From IMG/VR virus record IMGVR_UViG_3300046777_001244, positions 1 through 40,104 of that record: a stretch of 40,104 nt of DNA; one strand, written 5' to 3'. Each line of letters starts with the position of its first letter. The stretch's first letter is position 1. Below are positions 12,901 to 39,001 of the stretch, piece by piece. Source of the DNA: a virus (Duplodnaviria; Caudoviricetes). The position numbers and the translations under genes are program-made. Under the pieces are notes generated by a model. It ran no database searches. It was given only the letters and a program-made list of their open reading frames with translations, and was not told where the DNA came from.

Positions 12901-15900
12901 GAGAAGAGCGAGAAAGAAGAGAAGGCTCGTGCCGATGAGTCTGTAAAAGACTTTGAGCTTGGCAAGAGCGCAGAAGAACAGATGACCGGCATGGGCGATC
13001 TGTTTAAGGGCGAGAAAAAATCTCTTGGCGGAGAGCGTGCGCAAGTACAAGCATTTGAGCAGACCCTACGCAATCTCCTGAACAAGTTCGGCCTGAAGGA
13101 TGTGGGCCTGAAGATTCTGGACGGGATGACTGATTCCGGCTCCTATGCCGCGCAGATCATCAGAATTGCCGCTGATGCCGCGAACCCCGTGCGGACTTTG
13201 AGGCACGAGGCTATCCACGCCCTGCGAGAACTTGGCTTCTTCACTGATGCACAGTGGAAATCCCTGTCCAAGATGGCAAAGGACAAGTGGATTGACCAGT
13301 ACCTCAAGCAAAGGAACGTAGACGGCAAACCTCTGAAAGCAGGGGAAGAATCCCGGTATGACGCATACATGCGTGAGTACAACGGGGACATGGAGAAGAT
13401 CACCGAAGAAGCGGTGAGCGATGCCTTTGCTGACTTCGATGCCACGAAGCCGCCCGCTGGATTGATCCAGGCTTTGCTCAAGCGGATGAAGGACTTGTTC
13501 CAGTCCATCAAATCTGCGCTTACGAAGGTTGAATCACCTGAGCAAATCTTTGGCAAGGTTGAGAAGGGTGAACTGAAGGAAAGCGCACGCGAGGCTAAGG
13601 GCGAAGCAAAGAGCCTGCGTGACAGGGCTACCGCTAACTTCCGCCGCTGGTTTGGTGACAGCAAAGTAGTGGATAAGAAGGGTGAGCCGCTGGTTGTGTA
13701 TCACGGGACGGACGAAGAGTTCTACGCTTTTGATCCATCCAAGCAAAATGTTCGCAATGCCCGCATGGGTATGGGGTTCTACTTCACTGCAAACAAAGAT
13801 GCTGCGGCCATGTCAGGTGACAGGGTGATGCCTGTGTATCTGTCGCTACAGAATCCTTACGTCATATCACTTGATGGCGATCCAAAATTTGGCTCAGAAG
13901 GATATGAAACTCGTGAGAAGTTGAAGCGCGATCCTGTTGCCGCGACGAAAGAACTTCGTGCCGCTGGTTATGACGGCATTCAAGATGGGAATACCTACGT
14001 TGCCTTTGAGCCCACCCAGATCAAATCTGCCATCGGAAACAACGGAGACTACAGCCTTACAAACGCTGACATCCGTAAGAGCATAGGTGGGCGCAACCCC
14101 GGAGAGCAGGCTATCTCCATCGTGAACCAGATGAAGATGGGCATCCCGCCCGCCAAGCCTACCTTTGGTCAGCAAACCATTGCCATCCTGAAAGGGGAAC
14201 AGCAACTCCCAACCCTTGACCTGAAGACGGCTAAGGAAGTTGCAATGAAGTTCTCAGATACGTTTGAGAAGAACATCTTCTCTGCTGATGCCGCGTTTGA
14301 AAACGCAGTGCGGCGCGGCGTAAGAAAGGCGGTGAAGGACAACGACAAAGTTATCGGTCTTGTGCTCCAAGCGGGCCAGTCTCAAGCGGTGAACATTGAC
14401 AACGTGGTAAGCAGAGCCATTATCGAAGGGGCCTCTGAGTACAACGAAGACATGCAGAAGTGGCAATCTGTTCAGAAGGAAGAAAACCTCAAGGCTCAAA
14501 CCGCGAAGCTGGAAGAGATTTCCAAGAAGTACAACTTGCCGCTTGATGAAGTCAAGAGCGTTGCCCATGCGTATCTTGTGACCAAGCGCCTGCCGGGCAT
14601 CTTGGAGCGCAACGCAAAATTTACGGCGGAGATTGACGCTGAGCAGAAAACCGCAAAGCCTGACCGCAAGAAGATTGAGGAGTTGAAAGCACTGCTTGTG
14701 ATGGTGACGCCTGAGCAACAGGCTCAGATGGAGCCAGGACAATCGCTGGTAAAGCTGATCCCGGAACTTGAGCAAGTATCTGACATCTGGCAGGGCATGC
14801 GTAAGAACACCATCAACACGATGGTTGAGGGTGGTTTGTGGTCAAAGGAATACGCAGAGTCATTGCTGGACAACGTTGACTACGTGCCTTACTACCGCGT
14901 AGAACAGCTTGAAGAAGATGCGGGTCCGCTGGAGTTCATTCGTGGTCTTCAGGTCAAAGCCAAAGATCACAGGCTCAAGGGTTCTGATTCTCCGGTGAAC
15001 GATGTTTTTGACAATCAGGTTCGCTGGATGCAGTACGCTATGAGCCGAACCATGCGGGCGCACAAGGCGCGGCAGATGATCGATGTTGCAAAGGACATCG
15101 ACATCGGAGGCCGCAAGATGGCGGTGCAAGTCAAGGAACAAGAGCGCGGCATGAACATCGTGCGCATCTACCGTGACGGCAAGCAAGAATTGTGGGATGT
15201 TGCTGATCCCAACTTCATTGATGCTTTTGCTGCTATCCAGAACGTCTCCATCCCCATGTTCAAGTGGGCGGCAAAGGCTGCGGAGATTCTCAGGAACATG
15301 GTGGTTCTGTACCCGCTGTTCTCTGTGGCCCAGGTTCCGCAAGACTCAATGGCTGCGGTGTTTACATCCGGCCTGAAGCCTCAGCACGCCTTGAAGATTC
15401 CATACCTCGCGGTGCAGGAGTTCATCAAGACGATTGCCAAGACCAGTGCTACCCACAACGAACTGAAGAAGTTTGGCGTAGTGGGGGCGCGGGACTTCTC
15501 TGCTGATGTCATGCGCAAAGACGCTGAGATCGAAGCGGGCTTGAAGCAGCCCAAGGGAGTGTGGGGCAAGACCAAGGAAATCCTTGAGCACGTTGCTATG
15601 GCAGGGGATAACGCTGTCCGTCAGGCCACGTACATTGCCTCTAAGCAACAGGGTTTGTCTGAGAAGGAAGCTCTTGAGAAGGCGTTTGAAATCTTCAACG
15701 TCCGTCGCCGTGGAACCAGCAAGGCGCTAAATTTGGCGGGGCAGACGATCCCGTTCTTCTATGCGTACCTCGCGGCTCAGCGGGTGGCGTATAGAACGAT
15801 CACTGGCGTAGGAACTTCACCGACTCAACGAGAAGCCGCGCTCAAAACTTTGGCGGCTACGTCGGCATCGGTAATGGTTCTGTCCATGATCTACGCCATG

Positions 15901-16812
15901 ATGGTGGGCGATGACGAGGACTACGCCGAGACGCCTGCTGCGGTGCGGGACAGAACGCTGATGATCCCCGGCTCAGGTGGCGTGCGGATTCCACTGCGGC
16001 CTGACTTCTTCTTGTTCCCAAAAATTATCGCTGAGCACACCTACCAGTTGATTACCGACAAGGGGTATGAGGATGGCGCTAAATTCAGGACATCGATGTT
16101 TGATGCCCTAGTGAACGCTGTTAGCAGCCCGACTCCTATCCCTCAAATTGTGAAGCCCGCACTTGGGGTAGCCATCAACTACGACTTCTTCCAAGGCAAA
16201 CCTCTTATCGGTACGTTTGAGAAGAACAAGGATCTGGAGCGTCAGTTCCGGGATACCACTTCTGAACTGGCAAAACTGTTCGGGCAAACAGGTATGGTGT
16301 CTCCGATTGCTGTGGATCACCTGATCCGTGGCATGCTGGGTTCGTTTGGCGGATTGATGCTGTACGGGACAAATATGTTCCTGCACTCTGATCCTGACGT
16401 TCCAAGACCGGAGATGTCTGCTAATGAGATGCTGGCCGCGTTGCCGGGAACCGCTGGCTTCCTGAAGCGCCCTCAAGAATCTGCACTGAAGAACGACTTC
16501 TTCGTGCTTCGTGACGCCGTAGAGAAAGCGGCCAACACCTTCAACGACATCAAGACCCGTAGCCCAGAGGGTATTGAAGCGTTCTTGGAAGACGAGAAGA
16601 ACGCCATCCGTCTAGGCATGGCAAAGGGTGTTGACAAAATTAACAGGCACTTGTCAGACATCCGTAGACGGATGACCATCATTACGAACATGCCTGAGAG
16701 CCAGATGCCGGCCGATGAGAAGGCAGAGAACATCCGGGAACTGAGGGAACTGGAGCGTGAAATTTTGCGCTCAGTGAACGTCAAGGAACTGCGGGAGATG
16801 GCGAAGATTTAA
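9907..16812 (+). CDS. Large polyvalent internal virion protein (HExxH metallopeptidase-like, ART-PolyVal-like, LPD38-like C-terminus)
   Basis: 2301 aa; RHEAIHA at ~13201; FRRWFGDSKVV..PLVVYHGT..GFYFT..GYDGI..FEPTQIKSAIGNNG at ~13630-14050; C-terminal SPIAVDHLIRG region. Confidence 0.8.
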   Translation: MAGRDFSAELFGPSAGRDFSAELFGAKPPEKQSAFRQIADVPLGIAKGAVQGVRMIADAFGAGSDTSKTIKSAETYLADLMSAQAKNDQQEISRIMKDAEDKGVLDQVKAGIKAFTVAPVDTLSSALGTAAPVIAGALGAKLLGAGALATTGVSALTGAGMGAGSIKGSIYEATKQTLKEAGASEQDAESRAKLAQEYGGKNLDQILLGTVLGGAAAVGPLEKGGAAILARRILGKTEETVAGQAAKGAVRRRLEAGALEAVPEAAQAGQEQVAQNIALQREGFDVPTFRGAFSSATLEGLAGAGLGAAVGGGKPAAAPEVPPAAPPVAPPAAPEAGLEQLTPQQKQELERQRAGRERPQTTEELFAGITTAPATTPQDVARIRDEHETAVIEGLLEQDAEMKRASDLAAQQREIQKQQTQLESEAEFISGGISDVDRRVREGRIFARVQDLIDRNIPFASTAINDINQKFGVINEAPLTEEERARIENIMGMVSTFTNFVNLPVLAPKPMDPFAENQQMEALIRERTERGQAQPVRTAPAAPSPSVQEAPVSQGVGEGPAVRPPSGVEPSVAEDSELVTPAPVVEAAAPTIPELRQRVEQADELSDEWQTRIDNLKNAVAQDIKQTLDANEMPVFVSKSGLTSVITPSAQQGGMFQLTRYNQTGAVGDSQYRTIEDAITDNNLQDANRLDKAKAEEHMAKLVEAEAAYQSSKKPAPKAKAPTTKPAKAAALRKQPNTIMGSTMLADVSNRLGGLDLSLLSEFSTKFITKRKDKYGRPLTMWRNPMVPGVGTLFRKGGESDYVLIATMLEEAGYLEPGSVERDYKEAGERAKDMIKAALNREEVLTLEQQESQRQADEEANRQAWLEQQEELKAERDNAAREAGLTPYEGDLLTDEDIDVFAPAKPQTDEQYAAAMRGLGFDETEIADAVQKKQERERAQKTASGRPAEARAVPETGEGTEGLERYTAEEVTRKQEEAEKAAAEEKKAKAAEQARLQKEKSEKEEKARADESVKDFELGKSAEEQMTGMGDLFKGEKKSLGGERAQVQAFEQTLRNLLNKFGLKDVGLKILDGMTDSGSYAAQIIRIAADAANPVRTLRHEAIHALRELGFFTDAQWKSLSKMAKDKWIDQYLKQRNVDGKPLKAGEESRYDAYMREYNGDMEKITEEAVSDAFADFDATKPPAGLIQALLKRMKDLFQSIKSALTKVESPEQIFGKVEKGELKESAREAKGEAKSLRDRATANFRRWFGDSKVVDKKGEPLVVYHGTDEEFYAFDPSKQNVRNARMGMGFYFTANKDAAAMSGDRVMPVYLSLQNPYVISLDGDPKFGSEGYETREKLKRDPVAATKELRAAGYDGIQDGNTYVAFEPTQIKSAIGNNGDYSLTNADIRKSIGGRNPGEQAISIVNQMKMGIPPAKPTFGQQTIAILKGEQQLPTLDLKTAKEVAMKFSDTFEKNIFSADAAFENAVRRGVRKAVKDNDKVIGLVLQAGQSQAVNIDNVVSRAIIEGASEYNEDMQKWQSVQKEENLKAQTAKLEEISKKYNLPLDEVKSVAHAYLVTKRLPGILERNAKFTAEIDAEQKTAKPDRKKIEELKALLVMVTPEQQAQMEPGQSLVKLIPELEQVSDIWQGMRKNTINTMVEGGLWSKEYAESLLDNVDYVPYYRVEQLEEDAGPLEFIRGLQVKAKDHRLKGSDSPVNDVFDNQVRWMQYAMSRTMRAHKARQMIDVAKDIDIGGRKMAVQVKEQERGMNIVRIYRDGKQELWDVADPNFIDAFAAIQNVSIPMFKWAAKAAEILRNMVVLYPLFSVAQVPQDSMAAVFTSGLKPQHALKIPYLAVQEFIKTIAKTSATHNELKKFGVVGARDFSADVMRKDAEIEAGLKQPKGVWGKTKEILEHVAMAGDNAVRQATYIASKQQGLSEKEALEKAFEIFNVRRRGTSKALNLAGQTIPFFYAYLAAQRVAYRTITGVGTSPTQREAALKTLAATSASVMVLSMIYAMMVGDDEDYAETPAAVRDRTLMIPGSGGVRIPLRPDFFLFPKIIAEHTYQLITDKGYEDGAKFRTSMFDALVNAVSSPTPIPQIVKPALGVAINYDFFQGKPLIGTFEKNKDLERQFRDTTSELAKLFGQTGMVSPIAVDHLIRGMLGSFGGLMLYGTNMFLHSDPDVPRPEMSANEMLAALPGTAGFLKRPQESALKNDFFVLRDAVEKAANTFNDIKTRSPEGIEAFLEDEKNAIRLGMAKGVDKINRHLSDIRRRMTIITNMPESQMPADEKAENIRELRELEREILRSVNVKELREMAKI
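9913..9980 (+). repeat. Two-copy N-terminal repeat GRDFSAELFG (39-bp period)
   Basis: GGGCGTGACTTyAGyGCTGAACTGTTTGG at 9913 and 9952. Confidence 0.9.
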
Positions 16813-20362: not shown

Positions 20363-20553
20363 ACTGCCCCCTTATCCATCATGTGCATAGCCTTACGCAC
20401 AGCGTCTGTCAGGTTGAGCCATTCGTTCCAGCCTACTGCCTGGAAAAACTCCACCTTGACCGCTGAGTCGTCAACGGCCTGCACCGTTGCAACGAGGCGG
20501 TCGTTATCCTTGTCAAAGATATCGATGCGGATTGGGCAAACGGATAGTTTCAT
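20359..20553 (-). CDS. Hypothetical protein
   Basis: Coupled ORF, ATGA overlaps. Confidence 0.65.
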   Translation of the reverse strand: MKLSVCPIRIDIFDKDNDRLVATVQAVDDSAVKVEFFQAVGWNEWLNLTDAVRKAMHMMDKGAV

Positions 20554-21931: not shown

Positions 21932-22242
21932 TTCATTTCCTTTCCGATTGCTGCTGCTGCACGAACGATGGCGCGGCGGGTGGCGGCAAGAGGGTCTTCA
22001 CCGTTACGCTCGATGAACACTTCCTTTTGCGTAAATTCTTGCCCGCAAATAGCCACATCGTCATATGAACAATTTACGGTTAGCCGCAAATTCACAGCCA
22101 GACGCAGCGCATCGCCGTCGTCGTTGATTGGGTTCCAGTATTCGCGGCCAGCATCGTTGATCAATCTGATGTAGTTCTGTCCTGGCCTGTAAGCCGCATA
22201 TGCGGCCTCAAGCAGTTCTCTATCAGTCGGACTCGTGTTCAT
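21928..22242 (-). CDS. TDRELLE family protein, paralogue 2
   Basis: WNPINDDGDALRLAV..ATRRAIVRAAAAIGKEMK. Confidence 0.7.
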   Translation of the reverse strand: MNTSPTDRELLEAAYAAYRPGQNYIRLINDAGREYWNPINDDGDALRLAVNLRLTVNCSYDDVAICGQEFTQKEVFIERNGEDPLAATRRAIVRAAAAIGKEMK

Positions 22243-23012
22243 TGGAAAGAATCCTTCTTGGTTTTGAAAGCGGACATGAGATCCTTGTGGCACTCGGGAT
22301 CAATGGACTTCACCTTGTCAAACAAAGCCCGGTTGACCTGAAAGACCTGCATGACGTCAGCCTGAGACGTAGCCTGCTCCAGCGCAACAACAGCGGCCTC
22401 AGAGACGATGTTGATGAAGTCAGTAGGCGTGGCGTCAGGCTTAGTTTTAACGGTGATCTGGAACCGACCGGCTTCGCCTTCCATCTTGGCCGGGGGCTTT
22501 GAGGGAGGAGTGGGCTTCTTGGCAGATGACTCTTCGGCCTCTTGCTGCTTTCGTTCCGTCCATTCTTTAGCGGCCTCGGCAACATACTTGCTGTCATCCC
22601 AGCGGCCACTGAAGATGTCGCCAGCAAAGCCCAAGTAACTAGCGCACTTCACCAGCGCGTCAGTAACGGACTTCTTGGGCGCATCTTCATCCAGCATGAA
22701 CTTCCCAGCGCCAGTGGTGTAGCTGGATTTGGTTTGACCGATCTGCTCCAACTCACCGCGCTGGCCGTCCAGCACGTACCAAAAGCGCACAGATGCAATG
22801 TGCAACGTATCGGTATCGCTGAAACGCTCAAAGCGTTCGTTGAGGATGTTGAAACCCCAGCCAATACCGCAGGGGCCAAACTCATCTGTCAGGCGCTCAA
22901 CAATCCAGTACGGCTTAGGGCTGTTGCCGTTGTACTGCTTGCCTGTGATGGGCTTGACTGCTTTGGGGTCGGTGGTGAACACGCGCCCCCATAGGGCTTT
23001 GTTCTTGATCAT
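22239..23012 (-). CDS. Rad52/22-like (Sak-type) single-strand annealing protein
   Basis: FGPCGIGWG and KKSVTDALVKCASYLGFAGDIF motifs; beside SSB and exonuclease. Confidence 0.75.
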   Translation of the reverse strand: MIKNKALWGRVFTTDPKAVKPITGKQYNGNSPKPYWIVERLTDEFGPCGIGWGFNILNERFERFSDTDTLHIASVRFWYVLDGQRGELEQIGQTKSSYTTGAGKFMLDEDAPKKSVTDALVKCASYLGFAGDIFSGRWDDSKYVAEAAKEWTERKQQEAEESSAKKPTPPSKPPAKMEGEAGRFQITVKTKPDATPTDFINIVSEAAVVALEQATSQADVMQVFQVNRALFDKVKSIDPECHKDLMSAFKTKKDSFQ

Positions 23013-23227
23013 GATGCCTCCACTGGAGTGAACGTGCAGAAGCTGCGTCGGACCGTGACGGACTCCCCTGCATCACGCTCGTTGTAGTCGAGCATGGCTT
23101 TGGCCTTGCCGTTGGTGATGAGGACATCGACCCAAGTGTCGCCAACCCGCGTGAGGATGCCGACAAACGTACCCTTGCGGCTGCTGGTGACGCGGTAGGT
23201 CTTTCCGACCTGGATTTCCGCGCTCAT
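23009..23227 (-). CDS. Hypothetical protein
   Basis: Coupled ORF. Confidence 0.65.
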   Translation of the reverse strand: MSAEIQVGKTYRVTSSRKGTFVGILTRVGDTWVDVLITNGKAKAMLDYNERDAGESVTVRRSFCTFTPVEAS

Positions 23228-23475
23228 GCTGCTTGCTCAACTGGAGTGACAATTTTGACGACAGGCTTCTTGCCCGGTTTGCGTCCAGGCTTCTTGGCGG
23301 GACGGCCTGCCTTGGTGAGACGCACTGTGCCAGCGCTTGTGGCTTCCAGCATCTTATTGAGTGCAGTCACAGTCGTCACCGGCTTGGCTTCCAGCTTCGC
23401 CAGAATTTTGGCGGCAGTCTCTTGCACGGCGTGGATAACGAACTTCACTTCTGTTTCATTCAGGTTGATCAACAC
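23224..23475 (-). CDS. Small basic protein with AT-hook-like GRP/GRKP tail
   Basis: KAGRPAKKPGRKPGKK. Confidence 0.6.
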   Translation of the reverse strand: MLINLNETEVKFVIHAVQETAAKILAKLEAKPVTTVTALNKMLEATSAGTVRLTKAGRPAKKPGRKPGKKPVVKIVTPVEQAA

Positions 23476-24364
23476 TTTGGTTCTCCTTCAGGTATGTCTG
23501 ATGTTGGCTGCAAAATTTAGAGACTTGGCAGTAGGACCTGCAGCGCGTCCTCTCGCCGGGGCGGATTTCGATGGCAAATTTTTCGTTCTTCTTGGCAGAC
23601 TTCTCAGCCTCCGCAAGCGCAGCGTTTGCCTCCTCTACGCTTGAGTGAACTGACTTCGCTCTCACACCTCCTTCTTTCTTGATGGCCCAGGTGCTGGGCT
23701 TCTCCCACATATCATCGGATGAGCACTCAGGCAAAGCGCCCTCAGTGTCTGCCTCAAACATGGCCGAGGAATGATCGGTCAAGCGGGACTGGATGAACTG
23801 CTCACGCTCTTCCGGGCTCCACAATTTAATGGGGATGGTGACGATTGGGGCTTGGGGATAACCCTCCTTCTGCGCTTCACGGGCCGACCAGTCACGGATG
23901 ATCGCCACGATGGAAAGTTTGGTGACGGGGATCTTCTTGACCTTCTCAACCAGATGAGCATAGACGTTCAACTGGTGCGTCCAGTCAGACTTCTCGTTCA
24001 TCACCGCCCAAGCACTGGTGGTTTTGTAGTCGCTGATCTCAATCCCATCCGGGGTTACGATCTGCAGATCAATGGCGCCAGACAGAACCCAGCCGGAGAA
24101 CTCTGCGAACAGACGCTCCTCGATGATGTGGCTGTCCCCCTTGCCATGCTCCAAGATATGGTGGATGGCCGAGCCGAACAGTTGCCACACCATCTCACTG
24201 GCGTCTTGCTCAATGTCTTCCCAGTGCTTGCGCTTGAGTTGAACAATGCGAGGGCTGTTCAGAAGTTCTGTGCATGAGATATGCGCATCGCCTTTGCTGT
24301 ACGTTGGGCGGTGGAGCGCGTTCAGTACCGACTCGGGCAGGTGGTGCAAGTTAGTTATGCGCAT
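23456..24364 (-). CDS. PD-(D/E)XK exonuclease (Cas4/RecB-like)
   Basis: GSAIH, SGAIDL, DYKT, QLNVY, C-terminal C..YC....FC. Confidence 0.85.
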   Translation of the reverse strand: MRITNLHHLPESVLNALHRPTYSKGDAHISCTELLNSPRIVQLKRKHWEDIEQDASEMVWQLFGSAIHHILEHGKGDSHIIEERLFAEFSGWVLSGAIDLQIVTPDGIEISDYKTTSAWAVMNEKSDWTHQLNVYAHLVEKVKKIPVTKLSIVAIIRDWSAREAQKEGYPQAPIVTIPIKLWSPEEREQFIQSRLTDHSSAMFEADTEGALPECSSDDMWEKPSTWAIKKEGGVRAKSVHSSVEEANAALAEAEKSAKKNEKFAIEIRPGERTRCRSYCQVSKFCSQHQTYLKENQSVDQPE

Positions 24365-30563: not shown

Positions 30564-30793
30564 GTCTTGCTCCTCTCGGGCCACCACGCGGGGCGGTCGG
30601 TCCATTCGACAGCAGCTTGAATATCTGCTGGCACTTTCACTACCGATTGATCCGCTGCTTCTTCGGCAGTCATCCCAATATGCGCTGGGAAACCCCACCG
30701 CTTCCCGTTCCACCACCGCAAAATATCGGCGTTTCGGCGGCTACTCGCAGGCCACCAGCCAATGCTGGGTGGCGGTCCCTTGTGCCATTTCAT
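30560..30793 (-). CDS. Trp-rich phage protein (WHKGPPPSIGWWPAS family)
   Basis: Recurring phage motif; coupled. Confidence 0.7.
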   Translation of the reverse strand: MKWHKGPPPSIGWWPASSRRNADILRWWNGKRWGFPAHIGMTAEEAADQSVVKVPADIQAAVEWTDRPAWWPERSKT

Positions 30794-31077
30794 TTCATCT
30801 CCTTTCCAATCTCAGCCGCAGCCCTGACGATGGCGCGGCGGGTGGCCTCTAAATCGTCTTCGCTTTTGTCTAGAAATAGCCGTCCCGAGACATCCCGGAC
30901 AGCCCCGATCATCACGGTTAGGTCTAGCTTCACCGCCAACCGCAGCGCATCGCCGTCGTCGTTGAGGGGGTTCCATCGTGCCCATTGGCCTGCGCCTTCC
31001 ATCCAAACATGAGTGCCGTCATGTAAAAGCAGTCCCGCCGCCTTAGCGGCGGCCTCAAGCAGTTCGCGGTCAGTCAT
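30790..31077 (-). CDS. TDRELLE family protein, paralogue 3
   Basis: WNPLNDDGDALRLAVKL..ATRRAIVRAAAEIGKEMK. Confidence 0.75.
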   Translation of the reverse strand: MTDRELLEAAAKAAGLLLHDGTHVWMEGAGQWARWNPLNDDGDALRLAVKLDLTVMIGAVRDVSGRLFLDKSEDDLEATRRAIVRAAAEIGKEMK

Positions 31078-31418
31078 TCCATGCTCCTCCCAATCTCAGC
31101 CGCGGCCCTGACGATGGCGCGGCGAGTGGCGGCGTAGGGGTCGCCCTTCTCGCTGGCGCAGACAGAACGCTCACATTTCGCGGATGCTGCGTGCGCCGAT
31201 GTGTTGTACACCTTCAGTTCCATTTCCAACTTCACCGCCAGCCGCATCGCCTGCGCGTCGTCACCCAGCGGGTTCCAGACAGTTTCCGAATAGGGCTGGC
31301 CTTGCACGTAATGCGTCATGGCCCAAACCGGACGGCGCTGCATGGTTCCGTCATCGCTCTCGTGAATCTCAACCCCAGCCGCCTTCGCAGCAAGTTCCAG
31401 CAGTTCACGATCTGTCAT
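31074..31418 (-). CDS. TDRELLE family protein, paralogue 4
   Basis: WNPLGDDAQAMRLAVKL..ATRRAIVRAAAEIG. Confidence 0.75.
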   Translation of the reverse strand: MTDRELLELAAKAAGVEIHESDDGTMQRRPVWAMTHYVQGQPYSETVWNPLGDDAQAMRLAVKLEMELKVYNTSAHAASAKCERSVCASEKGDPYAATRRAIVRAAAEIGRSME

Positions 31419-32112: not shown

Positions 32113-32190
32113 CCCCGATGCTACACTGATCCTACCTGATGACAACTAGGGGTTTATACCTAGTGCATTCGGGCAACAGGAGAGTAGCAT
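32113..32190. promoter_or_regulatory. Divergent promoter pair around a CTAGG..CCTAG palindrome
   Basis: - strand TTGTCA-16-TAGCAT; + strand GTGCAT-16-TAGCAT; CAACTAGGGGTTTA identical to 26102-26115. Confidence 0.6.
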
Positions 32191-32220: not shown

Positions 32221-32418
32221 ATGGACAAGCAAGAGTTCAAGCGCCGGTGGGAGTCTGGCGATGACGGCGGCGGCATCACGATGGAGGACATTGCCGCGTG
32301 CTACGTTGAGTGGGGGTTGGGATCAACACCGCGCATACGGTCCCCACGTTCAGTGATTCGGGCTGTGGTTAAAGCGGCGGATACAAACGACCAAGACGAC
32401 TGGGAAGACGAGCTTTGA
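32221..32418 (+). CDS. Hypothetical protein
   Basis: AGGAG RBS; acidic tail. Confidence 0.7.
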   Translation: MDKQEFKRRWESGDDGGGITMEDIAACYVEWGLGSTPRIRSPRSVIRAVVKAADTNDQDDWEDEL

Positions 32419-32438
32419 CAAGACGACTGGGAAGACGA
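32392..32438 (+). repeat. 20-bp direct repeat straddling a stop codon
   Basis: CAAGACGACTGGGAAGACGA at 32392 and 32419. Confidence 0.9.
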
Positions 32439-32451
32439 CCAAGGAGCAAGC

Positions 32452-32775
32452 ATGAGCCTAGACGTAATGCTTTACGACGCCGATGGGACCGAGGTTTACT
32501 CGGCCAACATCACGCACAACCTCAACAAGATGGCCGACGAGGCGGGCATCTATGCCTGTCTGTGGCGCCCTGAAGAGAACGGCATCACGCACGCGCGGCA
32601 GATCATTGAGCCGCTGGCCGCCGGGCTGGTGCTGCTAGTGACCGAAAAGGCACGGTTTGAGCAGTTCAACGCCCCGAACGGCTGGGGGCTGTGGAAGCAC
32701 TTTGTTCCGTGGTGCGCCGCCTACCTGCAGGCGTGCCGGGACAACCCCGACGCGCTGGTGCGGGTGAGCCGCTGA
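32452..32775 (+). CDS. Conserved phage protein (SLDV..NITHNL..PNGWG family)
   Basis: AGGAG RBS; recognisable phage motif; GC-rich. Confidence 0.75.
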   Translation: MSLDVMLYDADGTEVYSANITHNLNKMADEAGIYACLWRPEENGITHARQIIEPLAAGLVLLVTEKARFEQFNAPNGWGLWKHFVPWCAAYLQACRDNPDALVRVSR

Positions 32776-32785
32776 ATTGGGTGCT

Positions 32786-32813
32786 GCATAACGTGAAATA
32801 GGCCGCATGCGGC
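32786..32813. repeat. TAACGTGAAATAGGCCGC motif, copy 1 (putative cassette landing site)
   Basis: 18 bp identical to 38967-38984; variant at 33003. Confidence 0.8.
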
Positions 32814-32825
32814 AGAGGAGAAGAA

Positions 32826-33005
32826 ATGGCATATACACCAAAGGACTGGTCTACGCCGGACTGGAAAAAAAAGAGCCGCGTGCATGAGTGGAAAAACTAC
32901 ATCAGCAAAGAGTTGGAAGCGATGTGGAGCACATTCAATGATGCGCAGAAGCAAGCGCTTGCCAGAAATGCTGACGACTTAGCGTCACGCGAACACTGGG
33001 ATTAA
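32826..33005 (+). CDS. 59-aa hypothetical protein absent from the ORF track (MAYTPKDW..HEWKNYIS..EHWD)
   Basis: GAGGAG RBS; open frame to TAA, which begins the repeat motif. Confidence 0.75.
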   Translation: MAYTPKDWSTPDWKKKSRVHEWKNYISKELEAMWSTFNDAQKQALARNADDLASREHWD

Positions 33006-33037
33006 CGTGAACAGGCCGCACGCCTTCGGCCTAACTT
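33000..33037. repeat. TAACGTGAA-CAGGCCGC..CGGCCTAACTT motif, copy 2
   Basis: Matches 38967-39001 in both arms. Confidence 0.75.
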
Positions 33038-33046
33038 TTGAACACC

Positions 33047-33847
33047 ATGAAAAAACTCAACATCAACAACATCATCATCGACAAGGGCACCCAGTCCCGT
33101 GCCGCGATCAGCGAGGATACGGTATCGGACTACGCCGAGGCGATGTCAGCGGGCGACGAGTTCCCGCCTGTGGTCGCTTTCCATGATGGTGTGGACTACT
33201 ACCTTGCCGATGGATTCCATAGGTTGCATGCCGTCAAGCGCCTGGGCAAGACCTCCATCCAAGCCGATGTGCGCACAGGAACTTTGAGGGATGCCATCCT
33301 GTACAGCCTGGGCGCGAACCGGGACCACGGTCTGCGCCGGAGCAATGCAGACAAGCGCAAGTGCGTTCAGACTTTGCTGGAAGACTTCGAGTGGGGCGAC
33401 CTCAGTGTGAACGAAATGGCCCGCATCTGTGGCGTTTCACCTCAGTTGGTGATGGCCGTGAAGCAGGAAAAGGACGCTGGCGAGAAGGTGAGCAGCGTTA
33501 ATTTTAACGCTCCGAAGAAAGCCAAGCCGGCAAAATTGGCGAACGTGGTGGAGGCTCCGCTTGAACCTCCGGGCGAGTTTGTCATTGACGAGAAGGACGA
33601 GGCCGTAGCAGAACTGATGGCCGAGAACCAGCGCCTGAGCGACCGGCTTGCGGTGGAAGCGATGGAAGCAAGTGAAGAGGAGAAGCAGGCGGCAGGCGAA
33701 ACCATCGCAGAACTGCGGGAGCAGATCCGCATCTTGGAGATTGAGAACCAAAGCCTGAAGATCAGCCGGGACACTTTCCAACGGGAGAACGCGGAGTTGA
33801 AGAAAACGGTGGCATCCCTGCAGCGAAAGCTGAAGAAGGAGGAGTGA
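33047..33847 (+). CDS. ParB N-terminal-domain protein with HTH and coiled coil
   Basis: FPPV, LADGFHR, HGLRR, SVNEMARICGVS. Confidence 0.8.
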   Translation: MKKLNINNIIIDKGTQSRAAISEDTVSDYAEAMSAGDEFPPVVAFHDGVDYYLADGFHRLHAVKRLGKTSIQADVRTGTLRDAILYSLGANRDHGLRRSNADKRKCVQTLLEDFEWGDLSVNEMARICGVSPQLVMAVKQEKDAGEKVSSVNFNAPKKAKPAKLANVVEAPLEPPGEFVIDEKDEAVAELMAENQRLSDRLAVEAMEASEEEKQAAGETIAELREQIRILEIENQSLKISRDTFQRENAELKKTVASLQRKLKKEE

Positions 33848-34224
33848 TGTCTAAGCGGAAGATCAGCGGCAAGTGGTTGCGCATGGCAGAGATGTACAAA
33901 CGATTTGCCAGTGATTACAAGTGCGCTGACTTCAGCGACGATGCTGCAATGGCAATGTACTTACATGAGTCCACCGGAGCGCCGCTGCCAGATCCAAAGA
34001 CGAACGGCTACGCGCTGGGAAAGAAATGGATGGACGTAACGGTTGCAGCATGGAAAGAGGAGATCCCTCAGATGGGGCTGCTTGTTTCTGAACTGCAAGC
34101 TGACGGCTATCCAGACTGGTTTCTTGAGCAAATTGGCGTGCTGCATCTTGAGCCAACAAGGCAGGCGTGCTCGTGGTGGATTGGAGAAGATTGGGCGCGC
34201 AAGCTGAAGAAGGAGGAAGCGTGA
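33844..34224 (+). CDS. Hypothetical protein
   Basis: Coupled; ends KLKKEE like upstream gene. Confidence 0.65.
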   Translation: MMSKRKISGKWLRMAEMYKRFASDYKCADFSDDAAMAMYLHESTGAPLPDPKTNGYALGKKWMDVTVAAWKEEIPQMGLLVSELQADGYPDWFLEQIGVLHLEPTRQACSWWIGEDWARKLKKEEA

Positions 34225-34478
34225 AGTTCAACATCAACGACATGGTGCGCGTGAAGTTAACTGACGTTGGCAGGAAAGCACTGGAGGATGAGCATAAGAA
34301 GTTCTGGTCCAGTGTTAAGCGCCCAGAGGAGCCATACACACCACCAAAGGAAGATGCTGATGGGTGGAGTGAATGGCAGTTGTGGTGTTTGATGAACAGA
34401 TTGGGCAGCTATGTGGAGATGGGAACTAAGGTGCCTTTTGAGACAACCATTGAGATTGTGAAGAAGGAAGAATCATGA
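34221..34478 (+). CDS. Conserved phage protein (FNIND.V.VKLT..G..QLW family)
   Basis: GTG start coupled to TGA, GGAGG RBS. Confidence 0.7.
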   Translation: MKFNINDMVRVKLTDVGRKALEDEHKKFWSSVKRPEEPYTPPKEDADGWSEWQLWCLMNRLGSYVEMGTKVPFETTIEIVKKEES

Positions 34479-34484
34479 AGGACA

Positions 34485-34504
34485 ACTTGAGCGACGGGTT
34501 AGGC
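34485..34504 (-). other. Truncated attC (R''-spacer-L'' only)
   Basis: - strand GCCTAAC-CCGTC-GCTCAAGT; no downstream L'/R' found. Confidence 0.7.
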
Positions 34505-34529
34505 CCGTTGCAACCGAAGCGAGAAAAGC

Positions 34530-34745
34530 ATGCACACCAGAAAAGCGTTCTTGATTTACCCGCCCAACTACAAGCCGGGCGACGGCTACAAGGTGCGCCG
34601 CTCAAAGCGGCAGGCATGGAAGGAGGCCGTTCGCATGGGCGAAGGCGCATCGGTTGACGTTCAAAAGCAGACGCACCCGGCCCCGCGCACGCGCTGGAAC
34701 TCAAGCGTCAGCCGCCCGCTTTGGGTGCTGGAGAAACGGGCCTAA
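34530..34745 (+). CDS. Cassette 1 ORF, hypothetical basic protein
   Basis: Stop TAA lies inside the GCCTAAC core site. Confidence 0.7.
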   Translation: MHTRKAFLIYPPNYKPGDGYKVRRSKRQAWKEAVRMGEGASVDVQKQTHPAPRTRWNSSVSRPLWVLEKRA

Positions 34746-34825
34746 CGCACCAGCTCAGCGGCGGCCCGCTGGGTGATTCAATAACCAAGCTGCTGGCGGC
34801 CGTCCGCTGCAGCGCACTGTTCGGC
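34740..34825 (-). other. attC site (86 bp)
   Basis: - strand GCCGAAC-AGTGC-GCT[G]CAGCGG[A]CGG...CCGCCGCTGAGC-TGGTGC-GTTAGGC; 5/6-bp spacers and two extrahelical bases. Confidence 0.9.
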
Positions 34826-34852
34826 CTCTGGTGCCGAAGCGAAGGGAAGGCG

Positions 34853-35077
34853 ATGGACATGCTGACACTGCGGCTCGAAAGCCGCGAGGGCGACCGCATG
34901 CTGTGGGTGCCCGAAGAGGCGCGCGGCGACCCCGAGCACTTCCTCTGCCAGCAGGGGACGATCACGCGATTCAACGGCGAGCGCGTGATGATGAAGTTCG
35001 ACGAAGAGGTCGAAGGCGCCGGCTGGGACGCAGCGCGCGAGGTGGCCATCGACCCGCGCAACCTGCGCGTGCTGTGA
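34853..35077 (+). CDS. Cassette 2 ORF, small SH3/KOW-like beta protein
   Basis: ATG after GGAAGG; TGA 1 bp before core site; fold is a guess. Confidence 0.7.
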   Translation: MDMLTLRLESREGDRMLWVPEEARGDPEHFLCQQGTITRFNGERVMMKFDEEVEGAGWDAAREVAIDPRNLRVL

Positions 35078-35078
35078 G

Positions 35079-35132
35079 GCCTAACGTTCGAGCTAAGCCG
35101 CCGCAGGTCGGCGCTTGAGCGAGTAGTTCGGC
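35079..35132 (-). other. attC site (54 bp)
   Basis: - strand GCCGAAC-TACTC-GCT[C]AAGC..GCTTAGC-TCGAAC-GTTAGGC. Confidence 0.9.
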
Positions 35133-35157
35133 TGGGTCCGAAGCGAAAGGAAAGACG

Positions 35158-35406
35158 ATGACCATGAAACTGAAGGGCGCGCGCGCCCGCAACTTCATAG
35201 CTGCCGCGCTGGTGGACCAGTACGGCGCGAGAGCCCGCGACAAGTGCTGCGGCGAAATGCTGGCGGCCGTAGAGCGCGAGCTTGCCTTCCGCGACCGAGC
35301 CAGCGTGCTGGACAACCCGGCCGGCATGACGATGAGCGAATGGCGCGCAGCGAACCCGGAGCCCACGCACGGCTGCGGGCACATGCAAGGCCGCGGCGCA
35401 GCTTGA
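35158..35406 (+). CDS. Cassette 3 ORF, hypothetical protein
   Basis: AGGA RBS; TGA 1 bp before GCCGAAC. Confidence 0.7.
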   Translation: MTMKLKGARARNFIAAALVDQYGARARDKCCGEMLAAVERELAFRDRASVLDNPAGMTMSEWRAANPEPTHGCGHMQGRGAA

Positions 35407-35407
35407 A

Positions 35408-35425
35408 GCCGAACGTGTGTTAGGC
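35408..35425 (-). other. Simple recombination-site-like palindrome (attI/attG-like) at array head
   Basis: GCCGAAC-GTGT-GTTAGGC, two core-like heptamers with 4-bp spacer. Confidence 0.6.
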
Positions 35426-35446
35426 GACATCAACTGGTAAACCACG

Positions 35447-35936
35447 CCCACGCCAGCGGGCTAGTGCTGGCATCAGGAGAAATCAAATGATTTATGAGAT
35501 GGGCAGACAAATGCCGACGCCAGCGCAAAGGCGCATACTTCGAGAGATTGCTGATGACTCATTCACAATGTCTCTGCCGATAGATTTTGGCAACGTGCCA
35601 TGTGGGGAGAAGTGGGAGCCTGACATGTCAACAAGTACGGCGTTTCGCATGCGGAATGTTCCGCCTCATACAGACCGGCGTAGCCCTGGGGATTATGTTG
35701 GAATCAGCAGACCTCGCAACTATGTGGCTGTATTCTGGCTGGTGGACATGCCAAATGGTGAAGGCTTGTATTTGCAGGTTGGCGGCGTGGCACGATCCAT
35801 GCGGCAAGGCGACTTTGTAGTTTTCAAAGACAGCGTGTTGCACAGTGTTATTTCAGATCGCGTATGGCGCGGATGCGCGTATCAGGCAAGACCCAAAAGA
35901 ACATAAAACACCCCCACGCCAGCGGGCTAGTGCTGG
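35447..35936 (+). repeat. 24-bp perfect direct repeats flanking the oxygenase gene
   Basis: CCCACGCCAGCGGGCTAGTGCTGG at 35447-35470 and 35913-35936; contains a hairpin. Confidence 0.92.
35487..35906 (+). CDS. 2OG-Fe(II) oxygenase / cupin-like protein
   Basis: PPHTD (HxD), GDFVVF...LHSV pattern. Confidence 0.6.
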   Translation: MIYEMGRQMPTPAQRRILREIADDSFTMSLPIDFGNVPCGEKWEPDMSTSTAFRMRNVPPHTDRRSPGDYVGISRPRNYVAVFWLVDMPNGEGLYLQVGGVARSMRQGDFVVFKDSVLHSVISDRVWRGCAYQARPKRT

Positions 35937-35951
35937 CAGCGGAGAACTTAA

Positions 35952-37415
35952 TTGAAACTAGAACTGAGAGAGGCGCAAGTCCGCGCCATTGAGCTACTGC
36001 GAGAAGGCTTTGCACAAGGCCACCGCTCTCAAATACTTGCCGCGCCTGTAGGTTTTGGGAAGACTGAAGTAGCTATTGCCTTGCTTGAAGCGGCAAAAAA
36101 AAAGGGCACAAGATCATCAATGATCCTTGACCGCATAGTTCTTTGCGATCAAACGTCTCAGCGCCTTGATAAGTACGGTATTGACCACGGCGTACTCCAG
36201 TCAGGACATTGGCGCTACAGGCCCAGCGAATACATACAGGTGTGCTCCGCGCAAACCTTGGAAGCAAGGGGCTCTGTACCCGATACCAAGCTGCTTATCA
36301 TCGATGAATGCCATTGCTCCCGCAAAGCCACCAACGACCTCATAAAGAATAACCCGCACATTAAAGTTGTCGGGTTATCTGCAACCCCGCTAACCAAGGG
36401 GCTTGGAAAGATTTATTCCAATGTGATTAACCCAATCACAACGAAAGAACTGGTTGAGAAAAAGCTACTTACCCCGCTAAAAGTATTTATCTCCAAGGAG
36501 ATTGATATGAAAGGGGCAAAGAAAGTAGCGGGAGAATGGTCAGATGCAGAGGCTTCTTCAAGGGCGATGAAAATCGTTGGTGATGTAGTTGCCGAATGGG
36601 TAAAGAAGACTCACGAAATATACGGCAAGCCTGTCAAAACAATCGTGTTCTGTGCTGGCGTTGAGCACGGTGCAGAGTTAGCTAGTAGGTTCCGTGAGCA
36701 AGGATACAACTTCGTAAGTATTTCGTACAGAGATGACGATCAGTTTAAGAAGGACGTCATTGAAGACTTCTCAAAACCTGATACAGAGATACACGGTATC
36801 TGCGCCGTAGACATACTTACCAAAGGTTTCTCGGTTGACGATGTGCATATCGGAATATCTGCCAGACCATTCTCAAAGTCTTTGTCATCGCATATTCAGC
36901 AAATGGGCAGGGTTATGCGGACGCATAGCACCAAACAATTTGCAACGTGGCTTGATTTTTCGGGAAACTATTTAAGGTTCAGAGAAGACTGGGAGAAGAT
37001 ATACGAAAGCGGTATTGATGAGCTTGATGACAAGGGGGAGAAGGCTAAGAAAGAACCCGACGAGAAGGAGAAGAAAGAAGCAAAGTGCCCCGCCTGCGGA
37101 GCCCTGTGGCCGCGTGGTTCAGATACTTGCTTGAACTGCGGGCATGAGAGGGAGCGTAAGAGTGCTGTCGTATCTGTACCCGGCCAGATGGAAGAACTGG
37201 GCTCCATGTCCCGAGACGACAAACAGGCATGGTGGAGCATGGGTCAATACATGGTGCAGTCTGGATCGTGGTCAGACAAGCGTGCTCTTGCGATTTACCG
37301 CGAGAAATTTGGTGTGTGGCCCCGTGGTCTGCATGCCACCCCGTTACCGCCGACACGGGCATTTGAGAGCTTCGCAATCAAGAGCATCAGGAAGTACCTG
37401 AAGGGCAAGCGATGA
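35952..37415 (+). CDS. Superfamily 2 DEAD/DEAH-box helicase with Zn finger
   Basis: APVGFGKT, DECH, LSATP, QQMGRVMR, CPAC..CLNC. Confidence 0.92.
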   Translation: MKLELREAQVRAIELLREGFAQGHRSQILAAPVGFGKTEVAIALLEAAKKKGTRSSMILDRIVLCDQTSQRLDKYGIDHGVLQSGHWRYRPSEYIQVCSAQTLEARGSVPDTKLLIIDECHCSRKATNDLIKNNPHIKVVGLSATPLTKGLGKIYSNVINPITTKELVEKKLLTPLKVFISKEIDMKGAKKVAGEWSDAEASSRAMKIVGDVVAEWVKKTHEIYGKPVKTIVFCAGVEHGAELASRFREQGYNFVSISYRDDDQFKKDVIEDFSKPDTEIHGICAVDILTKGFSVDDVHIGISARPFSKSLSSHIQQMGRVMRTHSTKQFATWLDFSGNYLRFREDWEKIYESGIDELDDKGEKAKKEPDEKEKKEAKCPACGALWPRGSDTCLNCGHERERKSAVVSVPGQMEELGSMSRDDKQAWWSMGQYMVQSGSWSDKRALAIYREKFGVWPRGLHATPLPPTRAFESFAIKSIRKYLKGKR

Positions 37416-38230
37416 AGTTTCTAGACTTCTGCCGTGCCCACGGCATCCTTATTGACCATCTTCCTCCTGTCGGCCTGTGGAGGAGGTATCCCACCGAGGA
37501 CAAGCCGCGCCACAAGAACGGAGCAGTCAAGTGGATGCTTGACCACGGCTTCGTCCAAAACCACGCCACGGAGGTAACAGTTTCCGTCTGGAGACCTGAC
37601 GAGCCCGTAAAAATTAACAGGCGAGACCTAGCCGAGCAGGCCCGCAGAGCAGAGCAGGATACTCTGCGCAGGCAAGCTGAGGCGGCCAAGAAAGCAGCTT
37701 GGATACTTCACCAATGTCAGTACGCATCTCATCCATATCTCAAGGCCAAGGGCTTTCCCGATGAGGTTGGAAATGTTTGGGTTAGGGAAGGTGAGCATCT
37801 GCTGGTGATCCCCATGAGAATTGGGCAGAGGCTGGTGGGTGTCCAACTGATCGACGCTGCGGGCGGCAAGAAATTCTTGAGCGGTCAGGTCACAGGCGGC
37901 GCGGAGTACGTGATAGATAACCGAGGCCCGCACTTTTTGGCAGAAGGTTTTGCCACGGCCTTGAGCCTGCGGATGATCCTCAAAAATTGGAAGCGCAGGT
38001 ACACCATCCATGTGTGCTTCAGCGCAGGGAACATGCTCAAGATCGCCCAGACCTTGCCAGGGGGCTACGTCATAGCAGATCACGATGCCTCAGGGACCGG
38101 GGAGCGGGTAGCCCGTGAGATAGGCTGGCCGTTCTGGATGTCTGACAAGATAGGCGACTGCAACGACCATCACCTGCGGGAAGGGCTTTTCAGGACGGGG
38201 CAGTCAGTGCTGCGGGCTCTCAAAATTTAG
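37412..38230 (+). CDS. DNA primase, TOPRIM domain
   Basis: HPYL..KG, VQLID..GGKKFL, AEGFATA, ADHD, DCND. Confidence 0.85.
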   Translation: MKFLDFCRAHGILIDHLPPVGLWRRYPTEDKPRHKNGAVKWMLDHGFVQNHATEVTVSVWRPDEPVKINRRDLAEQARRAEQDTLRRQAEAAKKAAWILHQCQYASHPYLKAKGFPDEVGNVWVREGEHLLVIPMRIGQRLVGVQLIDAAGGKKFLSGQVTGGAEYVIDNRGPHFLAEGFATALSLRMILKNWKRRYTIHVCFSAGNMLKIAQTLPGGYVIADHDASGTGERVAREIGWPFWMSDKIGDCNDHHLREGLFRTGQSVLRALKI

Positions 38231-38246
38231 GGGTACCAAGCATCCT

Positions 38247-38293
38247 CAACTGGTGTAAGCCCTATGTTGCTATCAGGTAGGATGGTGTAAGAT
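38247..38293 (+). promoter_or_regulatory. Putative promoter sharing ATCAGGTAGGAT spacer motif
   Basis: TTGCTA..TGTAAGAT with ATCAGGTAGGAT identical to - strand 32129-32140; CAACT..CCCTA upstream. Confidence 0.55.
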
Positions 38294-38305
38294 GGATGTA
38301 GACAG

Positions 38306-38601
38306 ACAGGAGAAATGATGAAGACGACTGTTTACACGGTGCATGCCTACCGATGGGGCGACCATGAGTGCAACAGCTACATCGTGGGCGTGTATTCCGA
38401 GGCTCACGCAGCACTCAAGGCTGCCGAAGTTGAAGAGGACTACAGAGGCGGGAAATACTCGTGCGAAGTACTGGAATGGACTTTAGACAGCGGCATGGAA
38501 GGCAACCACGATACCGTGCACGCGCCGAAGACCGTGAGGCCACTTGTCAAGTTTTCTCAAAAGATACGGAACGTGAAATAAGCACACAGGAGAAATGATG
38601 A
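38306..38601 (+). repeat. 16-bp direct repeats (RBS plus start) flanking a gene
   Basis: ACAGGAGAAATGATGA at 38306 and 38586. Confidence 0.85.
38315..38581 (+). CDS. Conserved phage protein (AYRWG..SY.VG..RGGKY family)
   Basis: Strong RBS; recognisable motif. Confidence 0.7.
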   Translation: MMKTTVYTVHAYRWGDHECNSYIVGVYSEAHAALKAAEVEEDYRGGKYSCEVLEWTLDSGMEGNHDTVHAPKTVRPLVKFSQKIRNVK

Positions 38602-38969
38602 CCAAGGATAACTGCCCCGATGGGTCCGCGTTGAGCGAGGGGTTAGGCGCCGACGCTTGGGCGATGGCGCGCTTGGCCCGAATGACGCTATGGCTGGCCT
38701 ACTGCTGGAACGACCACAACTTCCAGAAGCGGCCCGACCAGTACGCACGGGAGTGCGCCAAGGAACTCGGCATCGCGGGCTTTGAGGACGCGAACGACTG
38801 GCTGCAAGGCGTGAAGGTCGAGAACCCGCGCCGCACGCTGCCGGCACTGCCTGCCGCGAAGGTGCTGGCAAGCGGCACGATCAGCGGCAAGCGCGTGGAA
38901 CTGAAGGGCTGGCATGAGGACGACCTGAAAGCGTGGGCCGAGAAACACGGCTTCGCCTTCGGGGCCTAA
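38595..38969 (+). CDS. Cassette-derived hypothetical protein (AYCWNDHNF motif)
   Basis: Reads through attC remnant (SALSEGLG); stop inside GCCTAAC. Confidence 0.7.
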   Translation: MMTKDNCPDGSALSEGLGADAWAMARLARMTLWLAYCWNDHNFQKRPDQYARECAKELGIAGFEDANDWLQGVKVENPRRTLPALPAAKVLASGTISGKRVELKGWHEDDLKAWAEKHGFAFGA

Positions 38970-38981
38970 CGTGAAATAGGC
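38629..38981 (-). mobile_element. Solo integron-type cassette with degraded attC
   Basis: GTTAGGCGCCGA (38642) vs TCGGGGCCTAAC (38959) 11/12 complementary; - strand GCCTAAC-CCCTC-GCT[C]AACGCGG[A]CCC. Confidence 0.75.
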
Positions 38982-38997
38982 CGCTTCGTGCGGCCTA
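38977..38997. other. Perfect hairpin between convergent genes; part of landing-site motif copy 3
   Basis: TAGGCCGC-TTCGT-GCGGCCTA. Confidence 0.7.
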
Positions 38998-39001
38998 ACT
39001 T

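Follow-up and report, generated by a model that had tools for sequence, protein, structure and literature searches.

Integron-type gene cassettes reversed relative to attC polarity in a tailed-virus contig

The IMG/VR record IMGVR_UViG_3300046777_001244 (Duplodnaviria; Caudoviricetes) is a linear viral contig of 40,104 bases that is 63% complete, and its whole length is referred to here as the window. Between positions 34,530 and 38,969 it carries four small open reading frames (ORFs) that are arranged like integron gene cassettes at attC-type recombination sites, and all four read in the direction opposite to that expected from the polarity of these sites. The reversal is confirmed for all four ORFs, while only two of the bounding sites, A and B, are complete (Table 1). 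A survey of viral and bacterial loci supports the view that reversed cassettes are a distinct class that is enriched in viral contigs. We consider it fairly probable that the four units are integron-type cassettes with their ORFs on the attC bottom strand, which are cut and joined by an integron integrase (IntI) from outside and are read from phage promoters. The window is best read as an outlying remnant, in decay and devoid of an integrase, of a reversed-cassette integron lineage of phages.

The interval consists of two site clusters that are separated by ordinary phage DNA with helicase and primase genes (35487-38581), and the called genes from 32221 to 38969 all lie on the + strand; endolysin, virion and ParB-like genes are also present in the record. 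Two sequencing runs contain every sequence word of the contig; both are freshwater metagenomes and may be where it comes from. On the + strand, sites A and B both have the order core (7 nucleotides, nt), 6 nt, L box (7 nt), stem, L box with one extra base (8 nt), 5 nt, core (7 nt), which is the order of the aadA7 bottom strand as printed in the supplement of PMC9892861. Both sites thus have R''-L''-L'-R' boxes with complementary cores and spacers of 5-6 nt, which the half and collapsed sites do not. In the accessible text of PMC5027507 the bottom strand is recognised by its extrahelical bases, usually a G in L'' and a conserved T six pairs further on, which are found on the arm facing that of the AAC triplet; the unpaired bases of both sites lie on this facing arm when the + strand is read. 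With a custom caller, which makes 0.075 calls at a score of at least 10 per 40 kb of Markov control DNA, site A scored 12.5 with + as the bottom strand versus 7.5 in the reversed orientation, and site B 10.0 versus 9.5. The full attC motif has one match in the window and the right-arm motif has three (34487, 35115 and 38631), with no match to either in 100 shuffles, and folding energy alone is within chance at the sites (z −0.5 to −1.9) and does not mark them. A canonical reading of the sites on the + strand was rejected on the basis of the aadA7 layout and of the bacterial control described below.

The lengths of sites A and B (86 and 54 nt) compare with an attC range of 57-141 bp in the accessible published accounts, site B being slightly shorter than its lower limit, and motif matches of 52-60 nt exist in bacteria. 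[quoted passage not shown] Site B and an attC from L203, a phage locus with its own IntI, are 89% alike, and the degenerate site that closes cassette 4 is identical in a related phage (G031). The two cores of one cassette are exact complements in three of the four cassettes, and the cores of one site differ at one position; this pattern is the mark of formerly circular cassettes.

A first-pass annotation of this DNA had claimed that plausible + strand ORFs run against canonical attC polarity in all four cassettes, with their stops at or beside the core. The direction is borne out by the aadA7 layout, by the extrahelical bases and by the conservation of the + strand proteins, with 14, 4, 1 and 5 full-length relatives for ORFs 1 to 4, respectively. 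The extension to all four cassettes holds for the ORFs but not for the sites, of which only two are whole and the rest are relics. The stops were also placed correctly: those of ORFs 1 and 4 fall inside the core and those of ORFs 2 and 3 end 2 nt short of it, and purine-rich leaders precede all four ORFs. All four lie on the bottom strand, and none reads towards its own attC. The longest complete ORF on the − strand has 24 amino acids (aa) in the first unit and 86 aa in the fourth, and there is none in the second and third. The N-terminus varies among the relatives of cassette 4. Of 200 distinct viral sites, 48 have the called start codon inside the hairpin, and starts of this kind explain the variable N-terminal part of ORF 4 and its relatives, which runs through the right arm.

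Table 1. Sites and cassette ORFs of the window (positions in the 40,104-base contig)
Feature	Position	Strand	Remarks
Right-arm half of an attC (on the bottom strand L'' box, 5-nt spacer and R'' core)	34487..34504	+	Before cassette 1; left arm missing
Cassette 1 ORF, 71 aa	34530..34745	+	Stop codon within next core
Complete attC site A, 86 nt	34740..34825	+ (bottom strand)	Extrahelical C and T on right arm
Cassette 2 ORF, 74 aa	34853..35077	+	With site A, one unit (34743-35086) in another contig
Complete attC site B, 54 nt	35079..35132	+	Extrahelical G in L box; irregular inner stem
Cassette 3 ORF, 82 aa	35158..35406	+	Cores exactly complementary, each deviating from the common core at one shared position
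Collapsed end site (two cores 4 nt apart; 18 nt, 35408-35425)	35408..35430	+	Closes cassette 3
Leader with ribosome-binding site and start codon, then half attC (38631-38648)	38583..38648	+	Precedes cassette 4
Cassette 4 ORF, 123-124 aa	38595..38969	+	Reads through half attC; stop within core
Degenerate end site (two cores enclosing a GTGAA spacer and then a short hairpin)	38964..38999	+	Closes cassette 4
Two further degenerate sites of the 38964 type (32786, 33000)	32786..33035	+	Flank ORF 32826-33005; outside the studied interval

For the survey, a single pattern derived from site B was run against viral and bacterial contigs, and gene strands were called with a custom codon-and-leader caller (trained on 14 window genes, then on all loci). 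It should be noted that the loci counted are not independent, several coming from one genome or strain. The orientation was reversed in 28 of the 30 viral loci, with none canonical and two uncalled. The same motif is also present in Burkholderiales, Lysobacteraceae and other bacterial genomes, and 81 of the 109 bacterial loci were canonical versus nine reversed, one mixed and 18 uncalled. After identical flanks had been merged, the counts were 43 reversed, 0 canonical and 11 uncalled on the viral side, and 15 reversed, 125 canonical and 105 uncalled on the bacterial side. The strand calls were checked with PHROGs, which matched 10 of 41 sense viral ORFs versus 0 of 39 antisense ORFs from the same stretches (one duplicate of 40 was dropped). 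A second pattern led to 12 further viral loci, which have the same reversed layout by inspection. The cultured phage PH101 (L304, 593-2058) has three attC, the bottom strand of which is the strand of the annotated genes; two of them were assayed by Qi et al. (accessible parts of PMC9892861). The first-pass annotation had proposed such a tabulation of ORF versus attC polarity, and the outcome upholds its suggestion that reversed cassettes form a class of their own.

Integron integrases are encoded by other phages with such arrays. A tyrosine recombinase was found in six of the 30 viral records; five of these were tested and three (two distinct genes) passed the TIGR02249 cut-off for integron integrases, as did one of 12 further viral records, and the closest solved structure to phage IntI is IntI4 (2a3v). 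A search with an alignment of three phage IntI yielded 274 relatives among 294 candidate IMG/VR stretches, and the counts that follow refer to the best 80 of the 274, of which 69 are distinct. In IntI-bearing phages, intI is the last gene behind the array and has the direction of the cassette genes. An upstream attC was present in 34 of the 47 viral intI loci that have 1 kb upstream, wholly with the bottom strand on the intI strand in 33 of them, and the genes beside attC at viral intI loci were reversed in 149 cases and canonical in four. In bacterial control integrons, of which 16 of 30 loci could be oriented, the geometry of intI and attC was the same as in phages (11 of 11 sites), but the genes were canonical (10 of 10). 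Likewise, the nearest gene upstream of intI was co-directional in 49 of 50 viral versus 2 of 16 bacterial loci. The phages with IntI thus have the usual arrangement of intI and attC, only the ORFs are flipped, and cassettes and intI point in one direction. In trees, from which two viral and six bacterial broken or partial rows had been left out, 65 of 67 viral IntI formed one clade that contains none of the 24 bacterial sequences (FastTree support 0.988; Shimodaira-Hasegawa-like approximate likelihood ratio test 98, with 50 rows). Two loci (L165 and L191) have a second large recombinase gene directly after intI, in the same direction.

In front of 58 of the 69 viral intI, versus 1 of 16 bacterial ones, there is a motif in which a core is followed by three or four bases, by AATTC and by a second box with TAAC at its end; this motif had been spotted in three of the loci before it was counted. 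From its position before phage intI, we take it for a putative attI. When a matrix built from the 58 motifs was applied to the window, the site at 32786 came first among 80,166 positions, that at 38964 second and that at 35408 fourth; the best window match to the second box lies at 35430 on the − strand, as an inverted copy in the collapsed site. These anchors might conceivably be attI relics. In 12 of the 58 loci (within L192-L271), the region around the intI start, 40-150 nt past the core, has an inverted second box that is possibly an operator. The window differs from a complete integron in that there is no intI beside the array in this 63% complete contig and no cassette promoter (Pc) reading from the attI side; the ORFs point towards the anchor. 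The first-pass annotation had named a reversed-polarity integron lineage as the alternative to a distinct cassette class. Such a lineage does exist, as the IntI clade and the attI-like motif indicate, but it is phage-borne and not bacterial, and the class and the lineage hold together instead of excluding each other.

The breakpoints between related sequences indicate which hairpin moves with the gene. Should IntI cut at AA|C of the bottom strand, a gene would necessarily travel together with the preceding hairpin. A contig of 438 letters (run X5) matches 34743-35086, that is site A and ORF 2, with two differences (99%). The match starts at the TAAC of site A, and past the next TAAC the contig has a different attC arm (85 unlike letters); the nine letters in front are unlike the window there and equal to those before the core at 32786. 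Another contig (run X7) also departs from the window at 35086. The copy in the 438-letter contig is bounded by TAAC cores, and therefore the gene travels with its upstream hairpin. Movement as a unit cut at the core was found not only for cassette 2, but also for L168/L173 (a unit of 428 nt, core to core, 100% identical) and for L023/L024, in which homology extends from AAC onward and the base just before differs. Locus L029 equals L019 minus one unit and retains the third, not the second, right arm, a difference that could also be due to homologous deletion.

The anchors at 33003 and 35408 likewise break at the core. When the window and five loci, including two identical ones, are compared at the 33003 junction, five different upstream sequences are found, and the 35408 site is a fixed anchor before which a related phage has another cassette, with the core base matching its own partner core. 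The leader and half attC at 38583-38648 are common to related phages with other genes behind them. The same leader and end that enclose cluster 2 are separated in G031 by seven ORFs with three full attC, whereas in G035 nothing lies there and the primase stop is joined directly to the end. In the place of cluster 2, another relative (L186, G033, about 15330-16070) has an unrelated A-rich gene between the primase stop and the shared end. In G031 (L189, about 1880-4700), full, collapsed and wholly missing attC are found side by side, and the 38964-type element occurs once empty and once with an ORF of 121 aa between its two parts.

The mechanism that we propose runs as follows. On the coding strand, a cassette would be the unit attC, leader, ORF and core; IntI would cut and join at the AA|C in the core that follows each stop codon, and insertion would take place at the core behind the last stop codon. 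Possible sources of the integrase are the host, another phage infecting the same cell, an ancestor and the part of this genome that the contig lacks. Half and collapsed sites would be decay products, the loss of an arm fixing a cassette in place, and recombination at short homologies may be a second route of swapping. Transcription would start at upstream phage promoters, as is suggested by the common direction of the cassettes and the helicase/primase operon. Candidate promoters are the divergent region near 32130 and, before cluster 2, an inverted 32-nt copy (32129-32160 and 38252-38283, 78% identical) that is missing from the empty G035 allele; a promoter scan gave four sites versus 3.3 by chance, and a terminator scan was also at chance level. 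The flip of the ORFs would let one promoter serve cassettes and intI. It would also keep phage cassettes unexpressed when they lie downstream of a host Pc, and likewise host cassettes in phage arrays; according to the accessible parts of two reports (10.1101/2024.07.02.601719, 10.1101/2024.07.02.601686), host cassettes often encode anti-phage defence. Furthermore, the flip could put the bottom strand on the lagging-strand template, a placement that favours folding of the attC bottom strand (accessible text of PMC5371416). A wider proposal, on which we are evenly divided, is that a phage IntI clade with its own attI, last in an early operon, shuffles reversed cassettes of phage genes, and that integrase-less phages draw on this pool.

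Several observations weigh against a phage integron at work behind the window's cassettes. No tyrosine recombinase (PF00589) was found in the 40,104 bases of the contig, which is 63% complete, or in any of five related contigs, one of which is 100% complete and contains no attC apart from, at most, a single borderline one. The score gives site B hardly any polarity, and more pairing is predicted for its − strand. When the core is omitted from the attI matrix, 32786, 38964 and 35408 rank 2, 6 and 4 of 1315, with only 0-5 bits versus a training median of 19, and the 33003 site ranks 124. The viral IntI were chosen as best matches to three phage queries, which favours the recovery of a clade. The cassettes of the cultured phage TJE1 were canonical when checked, and thus not all phage cassettes are reversed. 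Finally, some breakpoints form another class, situated where the right arm ends: a contig from run X3 is identical over 38474-38648 and then unlike, G031 also differs behind 38648, and in the pairs L012/L163 and L163/L172 (94%) the similarity begins at this point. Such breakpoints are not given by bottom-strand IntI action alone; they could stem from short-homology exchange between the conserved 18-nt arms, or from top-strand or half-site recombination.

Three other explanations have to be weighed. The sites might be integron relics without an integrase, with genes being swapped by short-homology recombination at attC arms and ribosome-binding-site repeats through the phage's own annealing and exonuclease genes. 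This would fit the missing integrase in the contig and its five relatives, the predominance of half or collapsed sites, the exonuclease-family genes at 22239-24364, and the module breaks at leader repeats, at a 35-nt repeat and at 38648. However, near-identical copies break at TAAC while sharing only 3-5 letters with the neighbouring sequence, which is too short for homologous exchange, and cassette 2 and its differently arranged copy are unlike at only 2 of 344 letters, which speaks for a recent move. We therefore consider this explanation unlikely. A related question is whether the polarity is only apparent, the recombinase using the other strand (crossover G|TT of the + strand) so that a gene would travel with the hairpin behind it. 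The breakpoints at right-arm ends (38648; L012/L163; L163/L172) would be in accordance with this, and top-strand recombination at low frequency has been reported for some sites (accessible text of PMC5027507); but the pairs that are 99-100% identical retain the upstream hairpin and change the downstream one, and the attI-like motif lies at the downstream end of the array with its core in the bottom-strand sense. Of the explanations considered, this one appears to be the least probable.

In bacterial arrays, individual cassettes can be inverted and have promoters of their own. The cassettes of the window could have been captured from bacterial arrays with inverted cassettes or from a bacterial reversed lineage, the phages having kept those that are aligned with their operons. 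The same attC motif is found in bacterial genomes, nine of the 109 bacterial loci were called reversed, and one contig of Luteimonas soli (L100) has two reversed, phage-like genes beside canonical ones, pointing to possible traffic between phage and host cassette pools. On the other hand, most bacterial loci (81) and all ten genes next to bacterial intI are canonical, and the nine reversed loci include three phage-like arrays with PHROG matches (L038, L044, L069) and two canonical arrays with one weak call each (L101, L117). Relatives of cassette 1 are found in phage-like operons without attC, and the phages have an IntI clade of their own. Hence, we regard bacterial capture as very improbable.

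The proposed phage-borne integron with reversed cassettes resembles the class 1 and sedentary chromosomal integrons of bacteria, as described in the accessible text of PMC5027507 and PMC5371416, in its attC boxes, extrahelical bases, complementary cores and AAC crossover, as well as in an intI that is divergent from the attC direction with the site between, and in a TIGR02249 integrase in related phages. It differs in that the phage ORFs lie on the bottom strand, that attC precedes its gene, that cassettes and intI are co-directional, so that no Pc inside intI can drive the cassettes, and that the window contig has no intI. Integrons have been held to be bacterial, with the cassette orientation fixed for reading from Pc (accessible text of PMC5027507). 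In cultured phages they proved to be scarce: among 10,705 phages, Qi et al. 2023 counted three complete integrons, one lone integrase and 17 CALINs, and five of six phage attC recombined with IntI1, bottom strands better than top strands (accessible parts of PMC9892861). The window is like these CALINs in having attC clusters without an integrase, and the sites of PH101 from that study proved to be reversed; a difference is that the integrases described there are of the Vibrio, Shewanella or class 1 type. The available text parts of that article contain no remark on ORF versus attC polarity. A further parallel are lone attC sites without an integrase (SALINs) and insertion at attG (Loot et al., bioRxiv 10.1101/2022.09.11.507474, accessible parts), with cassettes outside the platform and domestication by hairpin loss. 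However, attG shares only GWT, whereas full 7-mer cores are matched within each cassette here, the same anchors serve repeatedly as points of insertion, and gene direction is reversed. A literature search, for which most subscription papers were beyond reach, found no account of reversed phage cassettes or of a phage IntI clade.

A flipped, phage-borne integron with its own IntI clade and with IMG/VR representatives in the hundreds would give phages a site-specific engine for the mosaicism of accessory genes. If true, mutual silence would keep the phage and host cassette pools apart despite a common chemistry. Tools that pair an ORF with the downstream attC would misplace cassette limits in viral contigs. 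The value of the window lies in its crossover evidence and in the visible stages of decay. In addition, gene families that exist both as plain genes and in cassettes offer a handle on the open question of cassette origin, and cassette 1 belongs to such a family: a relative of ORF 1 sits between two full reversed attC in L142 and another precedes one attC-like site in L143, while no attC was seen with the relatives in L001, L141 and L144-L147.

Neither Pfam nor PHROGs assigned a family to the four cassette proteins or to five − strand ORFs that were tested; a match of ORF 4 to Ish1 was discarded, since it was below the family cut-off. In the ESM Atlas, ORF 2 gave matches of 0.91 to unnamed clusters and DUF4314 with 166-169 shared features, which is a lead only, and ORF 4 gave nothing usable. 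Viral scans with ORF 4 and with alignment A1 yielded no loci, and none of the four proteins was found in the IntI-bearing loci that were fetched. The cluster DNA had no match in GenBank phages, nine records of which encode an IntI relative, none more than 55% identical to the L163 enzyme; in one of them, Rctr41k, the custom caller found no attC in 10.6 kb. An Rfam scan of the window gave no match.

Further modules are visible around the clusters. Two ORFs with degenerate sites at their borders, 32452-32775 (phrog_4019) and 32826-33005 (phrog_9546), resemble additional cassettes, and a relative of the former is the last gene before the CALIN of phage TJE1. The end of a ParB-like gene (stop and next leader) recurs before swapped genes (33810-33850, 34197-34242 and 34459-34495), and relatives break at these repeats, which suggests short-homology exchange. 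Paralogous small genes starting with MTDRELLE (− strand, 30790-31277) recur at 20550, 21928, 30790 and 31074, with repeats of 57 and 53 nt. A 35-nt direct repeat with a short hairpin (35438-35472 and 35904-35938) flanks ORF 35487-35906, which has a weak hydroxylase-like Pfam match below the cut-off; related phages have other genes between the same 35-nt repeats, which constitute a second module system without attC.

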